This document shows, piece by piece, positions 27,313-39,303 of a stretch of DNA of 64,000 bases (position 1 is the first letter of the stretch; every line of letters starts with the position of its first letter). The notes beneath the pieces were generated by a model, which worked only from the letters and a program-made list of their open reading frames with translations, did no database searches and was not told where the DNA came from. Position numbers and translations under genes: made by a program. Origin of the DNA: Escherichia coli (GTDB lineage: Bacteria > Pseudomonadota > Gammaproteobacteria > Enterobacterales > Enterobacteriaceae); NCBI RefSeq assembly GCF_041248615.1, contig NZ_CP158426.1. One strand, 5' to 3'.

Positions 27313-27493
27313 TTGCGTATAGATTGAGCAAATCCCAAATAGCCGTTAAAATTATATGCATTATCACGCCGACAGGTGCATTACACGATGTCACGGTAGC
27401 GCCTGTACGGTAAACTATGCGGGTTTACGGTCAGTACCCACATAAATTGTGTGGTCTGGTCTCAATTTATTGACGAAGAGGATTAAGTATCTC

Positions 27494-27811
27494 ATGGCTG
27501 AATGGAGCGGCGAATATATCAGCCCATACGCTGAGCACGGCAAGAAGAGTGAACAAGTCAAAAAGATTACGGTTTCCATTCCTCTTAAGGTGTTAAAAAT
27601 CCTCACCGATGAACGCACGCGTCGTCAGGTGAACAACCTGCGTCACGCTACCAACAGCGAGCTGCTGTGCGAAGCGTTTCTGCATGCCTTTACCGGGCAA
27701 CCTTTGCCGGATGATGCCGATCTGCGTAAAGAGCGCAGCGACGAAATCCCGGAAGCGGCAAAAGAGATCATGCGTGAGATGGGGATTAACCCGGAGACGT
27801 GGGAATACTAA
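27494..27811 (+). CDS. metJ: Methionine repressor MetJ, 105 aa
   Basis: ORF 27449..27811 trimmed to [45 protein letters not shown]. Confidence 0.95.
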
Positions 27812-27870
27812 AGCGGAAAAGAGCGGCGCGGAGTTAACCAGCCGCTTTTTTCATACATGGACGTTTAACG

Positions 27871-28479
27871 ATGAAAATCAGGCTACTGATCCTCAGCCTG
27901 CTGGTTTCTGTGCCTGCATTTGCCTGGCAACCACAAACCGGCGACATCATCTTTCAGATCTCTCGCTCATCGCAAAGTAAAGCGATCCAACTGGCGACCC
28001 ATTCCGATTACAGCCACACCGGTATGCTGGTGATACGCAACAAAAAGCCCTACGTTTTTGAAGCGGTCGGCCCGGTGAAATACACCCCGCTCAAGCAGTG
28101 GATTGCCCATGGTGAAAAGGGCAAATACGTTGTTCGCCGCGTTGAAGGCGGACTGAGTGTTAAACAACAGCAAAAACTGGCGCAAACGGCAAAACGTTAT
28201 CTCGGCAAACCGTATGATTTCAGCTTCTCGTGGAGCGACGATCGCCAGTACTGTTCGGAAGTGGTGTGGAAGGTTTATCAGAATGCGCTGGGAATGCGCG
28301 TGGGCGAACAGCAGAAGTTGAAAGAGTTCGACCTGAGCAGCCCACAAGTTCAGGCAAAGCTCAAAGAACGTTACGGCAAGAATATTCCGCTTGAGGAAAC
28401 GGTGGTCTCGCCACAAGCCGTTTTCGATGCGCCACAACTCACCACTGTTGCCAAAGAATGGCCGCTGTTTTCGTGGTAA
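27871..28479 (+). CDS. yiiX: Putative lipid-binding hydrolase YiiX (permuted papain-like fold), 202 aa
   Basis: ORF 27871..28479 with signal peptide MKIRLLILSLLVSVPAFA. Confidence 0.85.
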   Translation: MKIRLLILSLLVSVPAFAWQPQTGDIIFQISRSSQSKAIQLATHSDYSHTGMLVIRNKKPYVFEAVGPVKYTPLKQWIAHGEKGKYVVRRVEGGLSVKQQQKLAQTAKRYLGKPYDFSFSWSDDRQYCSEVVWKVYQNALGMRVGEQQKLKEFDLSSPQVQAKLKERYGKNIPLEETVVSPQAVFDAPQLTTVAKEWPLFSW

Positions 28480-28623
28480 TGGATGATAAAAAAAATAATT
28501 CCCGCCGTAGTCTGTTTGTTGCTTTGTAGTTGCACGACCTTTCCGCAAGCTGTCGCTCCGGTAAACGGTGATGCCTCCAATTAGTTGAATTAAGGATATA
28601 ATACTCGCTTTTAAGGTTGTTTC

Positions 28624-28896
28624 ATGGTCACAGTTAACCTTCATTGTCCCCGTTGCCAGTCCGTTCAGGTTTACCGTCACGGGCAGAACCCCAAAAGACA
28701 TGATCGATTCCGCGGCCGTGACTGTCACCGGGTATTTCAGCTCAGTTACTGTTACGAGCCCCGTAAACCAGGAGTTAAAGACCAAATCGCTGAAATGGCT
28801 TTCAACGGTGCCGGGGTTCGCTATACTGCCCTTACGCTGAAAATCGGCATTAATACAGTCATCCGAACTTTAAAAAACTCTCGCCACGAAAAATAA
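28624..28896 (+). CDS. insA: IS1-family InsA-like zinc-ribbon protein, 90 aa
   Basis: ORF 28624..28896; CPRC-x17-CHRVFQ zinc ribbon plus HTH region (GAGVRYTALTLKIGINTVIRTLKNS); roughly 40% identity to canonical IS1 InsA by eye. Confidence 0.75.
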   Translation: MVTVNLHCPRCQSVQVYRHGQNPKRHDRFRGRDCHRVFQLSYCYEPRKPGVKDQIAEMAFNGAGVRYTALTLKIGINTVIRTLKNSRHEK

Positions 28897-28922
28897 CGTC
28901 ATCCCCGGTCGCTCATGCTGAT

Positions 28923-29330
28923 GTGGCACTCATCTGCGAACTTAGTCAGCAATGGAGCTTTGTCGGCAGTAAAGCGCGACAGCACTGGCTCTGGTACGTG
29001 TACAACACGAAAACTGGTGGTGTTCTGGCCTACACTTTTGGCCCCCGGACTGATGAAACCTGTCGTGAACTGCTGGCGCTGCTTACCCTTTTACCATCGG
29101 CATGTTGACCACTGACGAATGGGGTAGTTACGCTAGAGAGTTACCAAAGGAGAAGCATCTGACTGGTAAGATTTTTACTCAGCACATTGAGCGTAACAAT
29201 CTGACCCTGAGAACCCGAATCAAACGTCTGGCCCGCAGAACCATCTGTTTCTCGCGTTCTGTAGAACTTCATGAAAAAGTCATCGGTGCTTTTATCGAAA
29301 ATATATGTTCTACTAATTGGAGTCATCACC
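28923..29330 (+). pseudogene. insB: IS1-family insB-like transposase segment, split across two frames
   Basis: InsB-like sequence in ORF 28923..29108 (EQWSFVGSKARQHWLWYVY) continues in another frame in ORF 29102..29416 (TDEWGSY...RSVELHEKVIG); frame break near 29100; the second ORF reads through the IS end. Confidence 0.6.
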
Positions 29331-29385
29331 CTTCTGATGAGCTTTCCTTGGATGATTACCAGACTGAATACACAGCCAAAGATTT

Positions 29386-29709
29386 TTACCTCATTCTGCT
29401 CTTTTTTCTCAAATGACATATATTATATTTTACATCATATTCATAGGCATATGACATTCCCCCGCCCCCCATTATGTCATTGTGGGTTGATGTTGGGCTT
29501 TCATAAAAAAATACATCTTTTTTTGAACTAGCATTAATTATATTTACTTTATATATTAAAATATTTTCTCCATCTGGAAATATTTTAGCCACACAATATA
29601 AAGCAGCTAAATCCGAATTACTTAAAAATATATTGTCATCACTCATAACTCCAGCCATTAAATGACTGGAGACTAAAGCAAGGAAATAACAACATTGTAT
29701 TACCTTCAT
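29386..29709 (-). CDS. Putative Rhs immunity protein, 107 aa, with N-terminal hydrophobic signal or anchor
   Basis: Native ATG at 29709 lies 1 nt after the reconstructed native rhs stop (TAA, 29713..29711). N-terminus MKVIQCCYFLALVSSHLMAGV; AT-rich DNA. ORF-track entry 29386..29769 is extended into IS5. Confidence 0.55.
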   Translation of the reverse strand: MKVIQCCYFLALVSSHLMAGVMSDDNIFLSNSDLAALYCVAKIFPDGENILIYKVNIINASSKKDVFFYESPTSTHNDIMGGGGMSYAYEYDVKYNICHLRKKSRMR

Positions 29710-29754
29710 TTTAATTACTCCCTTGCCTGATAATTGTAACTCCATTCCCTTTAG

Positions 29755-30950
<1,196 letters not shown>

Positions 30951-33900
30951 TTAGCTTTGGGATTATATTTTAGATAGGTGTTATTTGGTGTTCCCAAGTA
31001 ACTACTGTATTCTTTTTTTCCCATTCCATTCATATAAGAATTCGTTAAATCTTTGCTTGAAAAATTTAGACTATCATAAACATCATTTTCTTTTGTTACT
31101 TTATTGCCTTTATCGTCAGAGTAAAAACCGTGAGTGTGATAATCGCCTACTCTCTCTGAACCTTCAGGGCATTTTATATTTCGCAAGTCTACACTATCAT
31201 TATCATTTGAACTTATCGGATTCATGGGGAAATATTCACCTTGCTTCTTACATATTAGCCCACCATATTCTTTATTCTCGTTAATTGATTCTCCATTACA
31301 CATTGCCAATGCAAATATTCCAATATCATCTATATTTTTTGATTTAAATTCATATAATCCTAATGGATCTATATTTGAGATCGGATTCAACGGATACTGA
31401 TAAAAATTCCATCCCCCCTTCAGCCCAATCGGATCCTGAGTGATATACCGCCCCTGCAGCGGGTCATAATAGCGGTGGCGGTTGTAATAGAGGCCGGACT
31501 CCTCATCATACTGCTGACCCGGCAGGCGGATGAGCTGCTGCAGCTGGTGCGGGTTCTCTTCATTCAGCAGGTTGCCCCATTCATCGTATTCTGCGCACCA
31601 TTCTGTTGCCCCTTCCGTGCTGACAAGCGCCAGCGGCAGGCCGCGATGGTCGCAGTGGTACAGGTGGATTTTTCGCGCCGGCGTGTACACCGGGTCCATC
31701 TGGTTTTGTATCTGCTCCACCGTCAGGCCGCACGATGCCAGCCAGCGGCGGCTTTCCTCACTCACCCGGTCAGCCAGGATTTCACTTTCCAGCCGGTCGA
31801 GCATCTGCACCAGCACCGGCGGGAACACCACACTGCCACCGTCTTCACCGCCGGACTGCTGAAGCGCATCCGCCAGGCTGCGGCGCTGCGTTTTCGCCAG
31901 CTCACCGGTGGCAGTTTCAACTCTGATGAGTGGCGTGAAGCTCCCCGGCTGATAAACCGTCTGGATGCGGGTTCTGTCGTTCTGTATTGTGGTCAGCCGG
32001 TCGCCGTCCCAGCCGTACCAGGGCACTTCCGGTTTCCATGACAGCGACATCCAGCCCGTCAGGTCCCGTTCACGCCGCCATACCCGTTTTGCCACCCTGC
32101 GGCCCAGCAGGTCGTAAAGATAGCGACTTTCGACCAGCGGCTCTGCATATTGTGTCCGCGTGTAGTGCACCAGCCGGTGCCGGCTGTCGTAATGGTACCG
32201 GTGAGTCCGCTCATCATCCGTGCGGATAACCCCTTCCGGGATGAGGTCGGTTTTCTCCGTCAGCCTGCCGTGACGGTCATACCGGTAAAGATAGTGCGCG
32301 TCACGGGCGATACGGTTATCCGGCCATGCGCTGAGGGGGCTGTCCGGGTGCAGCTCCGGGTCGGGCAGGCGGTTGCCCGCCGGGTCCGTGGCATACGGGA
32401 TGCGGATATCAAGGTTCGCTGCCGTGGTGTGGACGCCGGTCAGCCTGCCGGTGTCGCTGTAGCTGTAACTCCGGGTCTGGCGCGGGCTGCTGATGCGGAT
32501 GAGTTCGCCGTTGTCGTTCCAGGTGTAATCGCGGTCATACTGCAGGCTGTTCAGGTGCTGGCTCTGTAACTGCCCGGCAGGGGTGTAAGCGGTGGTGAGT
32601 TCATAACGGCCGAAGCTGCGCAGCGTTTCCCGGTGCAGGCGGTCGCGGGTGAAATCCACCAGCGGTGTGTCGCCGAGTTTCATGCCTGACAGCCAGCCGC
32701 TGCCGTAGGTCAGCCATTCCACGGCGGGCAGGCTGTCCGGTATACAGCGGTTCGCCAGTCCCTGCGCGTTGTACGCATGTCTGGTTTCATGCTGCCAGAG
32801 CAGTGCTTCCGTCTGCGGGTGATGCACCGTCTGGCGCTCACCGGTCAGGCGGCCTTTCTCATCATACCCGTAATGCACCGTCACCCGGTGGCCTTCGCTG
32901 AGATGGCTGATTTGTGTCAGCCAGCCGCGTTCGTCGTACCGCCACTGTTCTGCGGTTTCACCATTCACCGTTCGCTGTGTGATGCGGTCTGCTTCGTCAT
33001 AGTGCCAGTGGGTGACCAGCCCCTCATCCTCGCTGCGGATAAGTTTGCCGGTCAGGTCGTGGTGATAACGCTGTGTGCGGCCGTCAAAGCCGGTTTCCTG
33101 TATCAGCCGGTCGAGTACATCGTAACGGAAGGTGGTGTGGCTGCCGTTTTCACTGGTCAGGCGGATGACCCGTCCGGCAGCATCGTATTCCATACTGCGC
33201 GTCAGACCACCCTGCGTGGTACGGATGGCCTTTCCCCACGTATCGTACTGTGTCCCGTTTCTGCTGCCGTCCGGGGCAATGACGGCGGTCAGGTCACCGG
33301 CGGCGTTGTATTCATACCGCGTTTCATGGCCCTGCATGTCTTTCACCGCAATTAACTGTCCACGGCTGTCGTATGCGCGGTACTGGCTCAGGCCTTCCTC
33401 GCGGTGCACCGTCGTCACCTGACCAAAACGGTCATGGTCATAGCGGGTTACATAACCGGAACAGTCGGTAAAGCTCAGCAACTGACCGTAACGGCTCCAC
33501 GTCATGGTTTTCCGGCTGCCGGTGGCATCTTCCGTTGCGCAGGGGAAGTCACTGTGTGGATTATCATAACGGTAGCGGGTGATATCGCCGTCAGGGGCGG
33601 TTTCCTGAATCAGACGGCCGGATTCATCATATTCCCGGCGTATTTCCAGCCCGTCAGTCCCGGTGGCTGACGTTAACTGGCTGTGGTGGTTATAGTAAAA
33701 CGCCGATGCCCTGCCATCCGGCGTGGTGATGCGCGTGATGAGGCCCGTCACCACATCCGGGCTGTATTCTGTTGTCCGGCCTGCGGCATCCGTCTGTGCC
33801 TTAAGCCTGCCCACCGCATCAAACTGACTCTGCGTGACGCTGCCGTCCGCGTGTTCCTTTTTCACCACCCGCTTCAGCCCGCCTTCGCCCTGCGTGTGCA

Positions 33901-34092
33901 GCACTTCACGGCGGTCCAGACTGTCGGTGATGGTGATGCGGTCTTTCTCATACTGATACGTGTAGCTTAAGCCTGCCGGGTTTAGCTGCTCTGTCACCCG
34001 CCCGTCGCTGTCGTAACGGTAACGGATTTCCGGCCGGCCCGCGCGGTGGTTGAACTGCACCCCAAATGTTGGACATAATCTGACATCTGAAG

Positions 34093-34623
34093 GTGCAGTT
34101 TATGAAACATTCATTTGAAGTAAAACTTGCCGCTGTAAATCATTACCTGGCTGGTCATGCAGGCATCATTTCTACGGCAAAACTCTTTCAACTTTCTCAC
34201 ACCAGCCTCTCACACTGGATTAATCTTTTTCTTCTTCACGGTCCTCGGGCACTGGATTGCAGACACAAGCGTAGCTATTCTCCTGAAGATAAACTTTGCG
34301 TGGTTCTTTATGCTCTCGGGCATTCTGAGTCTCTACCCCGGGTAGCTGCCCGGTTTAACATTCCCAGCCACAACACGGTTAAAAACTGGATAAAAGGCTA
34401 CCGCAAATCTGGTAATGAGGCCTTTATCAGGCGCAGGAAGGAGAAAAGCATGACCCGTTCTGATGATACCCATGAAAACGAGGCAAACATGACGCCGGAA
34501 GAGATGAAGAATGAGCTGCGTTATCTTCGCGCAGAAAATGCATATCTGAAAGCCATGCAGGAGCATCTCCTGGAAAAAAAGCGCCAGGAGCTGGAGAAAA
34601 AACGAAAGTCATCCGGAGCCTGA
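34093..34623 (+). CDS. IS3-family transposase OrfA (HTH), 176 aa
   Basis: ORF 34093..34623; HTH and leucine-zipper-like region; slippery heptamer near its 3' end. Confidence 0.85.
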
Positions 34624-34727
34624 GGTGCGGACACTGCCAGTCTGACCTGTTAAAGGCTGCAGGGCTGGCCAGAAGCACGCTGTACTACCAGCTGTCACTG
34701 CAGAAGGCTAAGGACAAGTATGCTGAT

Positions 34728-36530
<1,803 letters not shown>

Positions 36531-36648
36531 CGTAAAATCCTTTTGAAATAAATAAGAACCAGAAGCCTAGCGCCAGTCAACAACAGGAAATGATAATGAG
36601 TTAACACCCCGGAATTTTTCAGAATTTATAAAAGGCAAATTACAGGCA

Positions 36649-36677
36649 CAAAAAAAGCGCCATGCGGCGCTTTTTTC
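36649..36677 (-). terminator. Rho-independent terminator downstream of rpmE
   Basis: Hairpin gcgccatgcggcgc flanked by A-run and T-run (aaaaaagcgccatgcggcgctttttt); potentially bidirectional. Confidence 0.7.
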
Positions 36678-36689
36678 GGAAATCCGGTC

Positions 36690-36941
<252 letters not shown>

Positions 36942-36945
36942 CTAA

Positions 36946-39303
<2,358 letters not shown>

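Follow-up and report, generated by a model that had tools for sequence, protein, structure and literature searches.

The short open reading frame that follows yiiX in the 64-kb stretch of Escherichia coli DNA analysed here (the window) is, with a probability that we put at about 0.93, a non-functional 5' remnant, or pseudogene stub, of a TIGR02117/DUF2459 lipoprotein gene that was cut by an IS1H-like element. The frame had been noticed in a sequence-only reading, which offered as explanations either the 5' remnant of a gene disrupted by an island or IS, or a small lipoprotein or leader peptide in its own right. The first of these is borne out by the finding that homology to an intact 207-aa gene stops at the first base of the IS. 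The comparison with island-free genomes that had been proposed gave the same answer: strains 98193, BL21, ATCC 11303 and E2 all carry a 207-aa TIGR02117/DUF2459 gene starting from the same ATG. The features bordering the two junctions are the following.

27871 to 28479, plus strand: yiiX, encoding a YiiX family permuted papain-like enzyme (Peptidase_C92).
28483 to 28584, plus strand: stub ORF of 33 codons, with the 33-aa product MIKKIIPAVVCLLLCSCTTFPQAVAPVNGDASN.
28483 to 28566, plus strand: native part of the stub, delimited by DNA alignment with the intact gene (98193, E2, 8600), blastn/tblastn and the lipobox pattern.
28567 to 28584, plus strand: IS-derived tail of the stub ORF, five codons (GDASN) and TAG from the left inverted repeat of the IS1H-like element.
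28567 to 29330, plus strand: IS1H-like element of the IS1 family, 764 bp, identified by NF033558 and NF050000 matches, PGAP annotation and its inverted repeats.
28567 to 28589: left inverted repeat (IRL) of this element, 23 nt, GGTGATGCCTCCAATTAGTTGAA.
28624 to 28896: InsA-like ORF of the IS1H-like element.
29308 to 29330: right inverted repeat (IRR), 23 nt, GGTGATGACTCCAATTAGTAGAA.
36643 to 36902, minus strand: right junction, placed by blastn, three-way alignment and annotation.
36690 to 36902, minus strand: rpmE, from annotation.

The TAA of yiiX occupies positions 28477-28479 and the stub ATG at 28483 lies 3 nt further downstream. Two ATGs, at 28479 and 28483, had been proposed to open the frame; the one at 28483 does open the 33-codon ORF, but the one at 28479, 4 nt upstream, is in another frame and encodes only MDDKKNNSRRSLFVAL before a stop codon. 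It is also this upstream ATG alone that overlaps the yiiX stop (TAATG), and the supposed overlap of the ORF with yiiX is thus not found, the stub beginning 3 nt past the stop. The peptide originally reported equals the product listed above minus its final N. At the other end, the stop codon TAG (28582-28584) does fall within the 23-nt left inverted repeat, as had been recognised, and the stub frame inside this repeat reads GGT GAT GCC TCC AAT TAG. Within 28486-28495, a G-to-A change converts a second ATG to ATA and makes a run of seven A residues eight long. For strain TA271, the protein on record (MDDEKIIP...) points to the loss of one base from that run, which brings the TAATG-overlapping ATG into frame.

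Between 28483 and 28566, the stub shares about 96% DNA identity with the 5' end of the intact E. coli gene over 84 bp. The window follows the 98193 gene from its ATG through 28566 and diverges at 28567, which is the first base of the IS repeat; in a tblastn search of the intact protein against the window the left match ends at 28572. When the intact locus was compared to the window by blastn, matches covered 27842-28566 and then 36643-37306, a pattern from which it follows that codons 28-207 and a further 7 bp have been lost and replaced by 28567-36642 (about 8.1 kb). To the right, the match begins again with the rpmE terminator hairpin (CAGGCACAAAAAAAGCGCC...), located 7 bp past the expected stop of the intact gene, and neither blastn nor tblastn found the missing 3' part anywhere else in the 64-kb window. 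Over 8.7 kb, the region from 27.4 to 37.3 kb matches the E. coli NRZ14408 chromosome (NZ_LT599825.1) with 100% identity, and the stub breakpoint is the same in all six carriers aligned (NRZ14408, 7/2, O157:H7, KO11FL/W, CUVET20-PYO4 and isolate 624). Short ORFs are abundant in this region, 51 of at least 25 aa overlapping the surrounding 4 kb, and the stub might have been one that arose by chance, derived from no gene and hydrophobic by accident. This explanation is ruled out for practical purposes by the DNA alignments and by the blastn match to the intact E. coli gene, which establish nucleotide-level orthology to the start of a conserved gene at the same chromosomal position.

In strain 98193, the intact gene is 624 bp long, lies between yiiX and rpmE and is annotated 'TIGR02117 family protein'. 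Its product starts MKKIIPAVVCLLLCSCSTFPQAVAPVNNDFAGQHNIYIVSHGWHTG..., and the translation MKKIIPAVVCLLLCSCSTFPQAVAPVNNDFAG... agrees with the stub through residue 27. The intact 207-aa protein exceeds both family cut-offs, with 225 bits for TIGR02117 (cut-off 131) and 157 bits for PF09601 (cut-off 27), the PF09601 domain spanning residues 36-196; since this domain begins at residue 36, the stub has none of the permuted papain-like domain. The His of the SHGWHTG motif (residues 41-44) and the Cys of NTCNKW (residue 176) likewise lie beyond the end of the stub, at about native residue 27. Compared with the TIGR02117/DUF2459 family (PF09601), for which WP_000720774.1 of E. coli B strains served as reference, the stub corresponds to the 5' end by orthology: it occupies the same place immediately downstream of yiiX and has the same signal peptide and lipobox. 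However, it retains only about residues 1-27, the Pfam domain is wholly missing, and neither the His motif SHGWHTG, which is invariant, nor the Cys of NTCNKW is left, which makes it a remnant and not a member of the family. What the comparisons demonstrate is orthology, the exact breakpoint, a haplotype shared across lineages and the complete absence of the catalytic domain.

The lipoprotein-like signal with a lipobox, which had drawn attention to the frame in the first place, is real, a PROSITE-type pattern being matched at Cys17. Signals of this type combine a positive n-region, an uncharged h-region and a lipobox of the form [LVI..][..][AGS]C, with the Cys at positions 15-35. The stub N-terminus has K3/K4, an uncharged h-region and L-C-S-C ending at Cys17. 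In its native part (about 27-28 codons), a signal peptide of 16 residues is followed by the lipobox Cys17 and by 11 mature residues. The lipobox Cys is kept in at least 90% of 24 aligned homologues, and the lipobox pattern was found in 100 of 113 full-length family members, with S, A or T following the Cys. Given this conservation, the lipoprotein look of the stub is evidently the signal peptide of the TIGR02117/DUF2459 family itself. The 33-aa peptide alone matched neither PF09601 nor TIGR02117 at E ≤ 1 in Pfam and NCBIfam scans. Pfam returned nothing for it, and two NCBIfam matches, to a C-type lysozyme inhibitor (E 0.096) and to Slp (E 0.19), were discarded as insignificant and of signal-peptide level.

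The PGAP start of the intact gene is the second ATG, 6 bp downstream of yiiX in other E. coli, and called DUF2459 genes show an equal 6-bp spacing after yiiX in Citrobacter, Klebsiella and a divergent E. coli. The gene order is metJ-yiiX-DUF2459-rpmE-priA in Klebsiella spallanzanii and metJ-yiiX-DUF2459, with additional genes ahead of rpmE, in Citrobacter werkmanii and a divergent E. coli; in Salmonella it is metJ-arylsulfotransferase-DUF2459-rpmE, the DUF2459 gene not directly following yiiX. The DUF2459 gene is ancestral downstream of yiiX in Enterobacteriaceae. The arylsulfotransferase gene (PF05935) takes the position of yiiX in Salmonella and stands between the DUF2459 gene and rpmE in a divergent E. 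coli, which marks the metJ-rpmE interval as a hotspot of gene-content change across Enterobacteriaceae. In strain 8600, the TIGR02117 gene would be complete but for an IS1A insertion, on either side of which a pseudogene fragment is annotated. This is an independent inactivation, indicating that the gene has been repeatedly lost in E. coli.

The protein that the intact gene encodes belongs to a group whose fold has been described. The C92 and PPPDE (C97) families are circularly permuted representatives within the NlpC/P60-type cluster, and DUF2459 has been placed among the papain-like families (PMC10318531). DUF2459 lipoproteins are papain-like cysteine hydrolases of the NlpC/P60 type with a permuted fold, and YiiX and the DUF2459 product, both permuted papain-like, are structural paralogues, a relationship that may aid work on the function of either. 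A PDB sequence search with the intact protein gave no match at E ≤ 10 and a fold search was used instead; an hhalign comparison of the DUF2459 alignment with YiiX was not significant (probability 1.9%), though the two His motifs were aligned. The comparators were the YiiX/Peptidase_C92 permuted papain-like enzymes (PDB 2if6, 3kw0) and TseH (6v98), and, unlike these, the stub encodes none of the permuted papain-like fold.

Members of the IS1 family measure about 770 bp, have terminal inverted repeats of about 23 bp that begin with GGTGATG, and carry an InsA (zinc-finger/HTH) and an InsB frame. The element at 28567-29330 agrees with this description in length, repeats and InsA/InsB, and is labelled by PGAP in the identical genome 'IS1-like element IS1H family transposase, frameshifted'. 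A simple IS1 insertion normally leaves a duplication of about 9 bp. No target-site duplication is present at the IS1H-like element, its flanks being CCGGTAAAC and CTTCTGATG, which argues that the IS marks a rearrangement junction and not a simple insertion. The junction shares with IS1-mediated adjacent deletions in E. coli and Shigella a coding sequence that abuts the IS repeat, a fortuitous stop codon and the lack of a target-site duplication. It differs from known IS-truncated pseudogenes in being old and widespread (about 2,180 genomes) and in that the IS itself has decayed. The rest of the replacing segment is occupied by an Rhs element, of which the coordinates were obtained by converting the PGAP annotation of NZ_LT599825.1 to those of the window and from the ORF list.

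29331 to 36642, minus strand: decayed Rhs element as a whole.
29386 to 29709: dsORF-f3, annotated by PGAP 'RHS element protein dsORF-f3', the only part annotated as intact.
29823 to 30803: transposase of ISKpn26 (IS5-like), from PGAP.
About 30950 to 34048, minus strand: Rhs core fragment, from PGAP.
34102 to 35450: transposase of IS1397 (IS3-like), from PGAP.
35484 to 36530, minus strand: DUF6531 N-terminal Rhs fragment, from PGAP.

In this strain, ISKpn26 and IS1397 have broken up the Rhs gene on the minus strand; the island of strain 7/2 is the same but lacks the IS5 insertion. Jackson et al. (2009, PMC2935791) mapped an E. coli Rhs locus, number 11, to the interval from yiiX to priA, and the DNA that replaces the DUF2459 gene is an Rhs element at exactly the position given there. 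The passages of that paper bearing on the locus list flanking genes only, and neither truncation nor insertion sequences nor IS1 came up in a text search of it; in comparison with the published locus, the Rhs gene described here is additionally split by ISKpn26 and IS1397. The 'RhsF/RhsFI' of an EHEC study (PMC7618764) was considered as a match and set aside, as it is located at S-loop 44, a different locus. The stub is thus an ordinary IS-truncated pseudogene at an already known Rhs locus and will not surprise specialists.

The distribution of the junction was determined by megablast of positions 28380-28600 (221 bp) against 5,426 complete E. coli genomes, 4,479 of which matched. The matches fall into three classes: full-length with the IS end included; ending exactly at the IS boundary, where the gene is annotated 'TIGR02117 family protein'; and ending at the yiiX stop codon (K-12 type). 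About 950 genomes that gave no match were left unclassified, and the allele percentages that follow are lower bounds. With the intact gene as query, its first 87 bp were present in 2,466 of the 5,426 genomes and at least 80% of the gene in 288 (at least 5%), BL21 and ATCC 11303 included; subtraction gives about 2,180 stub carriers (about 40%), among them O157:H7, O26, KO11FL/W and E24377A. The IS1H/dsORF-f3 junction, on the far side of the IS, occurs in 2,160 of the 5,426. Together with the shared breakpoint, this count indicates, so far as sequence comparison can tell, one linked haplotype and a single origin of the stub allele. A further 2,013 or so genomes (at least 37%) are K-12-like, with neither stub nor gene, yiiX being followed immediately by the rpmE terminator. 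The yiiX-rpmE locus is accordingly a three-allele polymorphism (intact gene, stub with IS1H and Rhs, K-12-type absence) for which the stub provides a handy marker. In the window, the positions concerned are 28477-28482 and 36630-36660. The right-hand ends of the K-12 deletion and of the Rhs replacement fall on one base, where the rpmE terminator hairpin (CAGGCAC) begins, and K-12 has 13 unique nt, TACGACCAAAATT, at its yiiX-rpmE junction.

One alternative is that the stub persists because its product works as a small lipoprotein, which Lgt/LspA/Lnt would lipidate at Cys17 and which would reach the outer membrane as a 17-residue lipopeptide, the sorting predicted from a Thr, and not an Asp, after the Cys. 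Such a triacylated product could have taken on a new role, for instance as an envelope component or a TLR2 ligand, and would then represent a small gene born from IS truncation in about 40% of E. coli strains, O157:H7 included. Besides its frequency, this proposal can call on a start codon placed 3 nt past the yiiX stop, which favours coupled translation, on the label 'putative lipoprotein' given to the stub in the GenBank submission for E24377A (ABV18848.1), and on the preservation of ORF, start codon and rule-conforming lipobox in all six of the diverse carriers aligned. The last point carries little weight, however, because 81 bp are too short for chance disabling mutations to be expected at E. 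coli divergence. Moreover, five of the 17 mature residues and the stop codon derive from the IS inverted repeat, and at least 37% of the genomes (2,013/5,426) do with neither stub nor gene. Relative to the majority, CUVET20-PYO4 and isolate 624 carry three non-synonymous substitutions and one synonymous one, the second ATG (the PGAP start in intact genes) is lost in the window and in strain 7/2, and the start is frame-shifted in TA271. In O157:H7 TR01 the first ~10 codons are replaced by K-12-like sequence and the start is removed, although in this case an assembly artefact is possible. As the stub peptide also lacks a family match in Pfam and NCBIfam and PGAP annotates nothing over it in any RefSeq record examined, the independent small lipoprotein put forward in the sequence-only reading is unsupported, and we hold a function of this kind to be very improbable. 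The hybrid junction in TR01 consists of TGATACGACCAAAATTCAGGCACAAAAAAAGCGC followed by the remainder of the stub and IS1H, and is either a real recombinant or an artefact of assembly or polishing.

A leader peptide, or an upstream ORF regulating what lies downstream, for instance whether the yiiX transcript terminates or reads through into the IS1H-like insA, was the other role suggested for the frame, and we rate it lower still. The ORF does end 40 nt upstream of the insA-like ATG (28624), and read-through is plausible, no terminator-like site being found on the plus strand between yiiX and the IS. But the sole downstream gene on this strand is a frameshifted, inactive transposase, the juxtaposition was made by the rearrangement, and in other strains the same sequence is the signal peptide of a full-length protein. 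Leader peptides and attenuators are recognised by terminator/antiterminator structures and a regulated downstream gene, neither of which is seen at the stub: the plus strand has no terminator-like site in 27400-29400, where promoter and terminator counts are at shuffle expectation, and an Rfam scan of 27400-29900 at E ≤ 1 returned nothing.

We therefore return to the truncated DUF2459 gene, for which the following course of events can be proposed. In the ancestral state, yiiX was followed by a lipoprotein gene of about 207 codons of the TIGR02117/DUF2459 family, encoding a permuted papain-like (NlpC/P60-type) protein. A single ancestral rearrangement would then have created the stub, by an IS1-mediated adjacent deletion or by recombination importing the Rhs element together with its IS, either of which would yield the junction; the IS may have come first and the deletion later, or all may have arrived as one block. 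The IS1H-like element, at the distal edge of the Rhs element, now abuts the gene after about codon 27-28, and the old reading frame continues for five codons into the IS repeat as far as the TAG. From there the haplotype presumably spread both vertically and by recombination. Since the start region beside the yiiX stop is intact and no plus-strand terminator-like site intervenes, transcription of yiiX probably still extends through the stub, which may also be translated. Translation would give a 33-aa prolipoprotein and processing a 17-residue lipopeptide (CTTFPQAVAPVNGDASN), for which no activity is expected. Annotations should name this ORF a TIGR02117/DUF2459 pseudogene, 5' fragment.

Two further ORFs in the replacing segment read out of IS ends. 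One, of 104 codons (29102-29416), runs from the InsB C-terminal remnant through the right end of the IS1H-like element into the flank, and another, of 62 codons (30785-30973), spans the end of ISKpn26 and is annotated by PGAP 'hypothetical protein'; both look like annotation noise.
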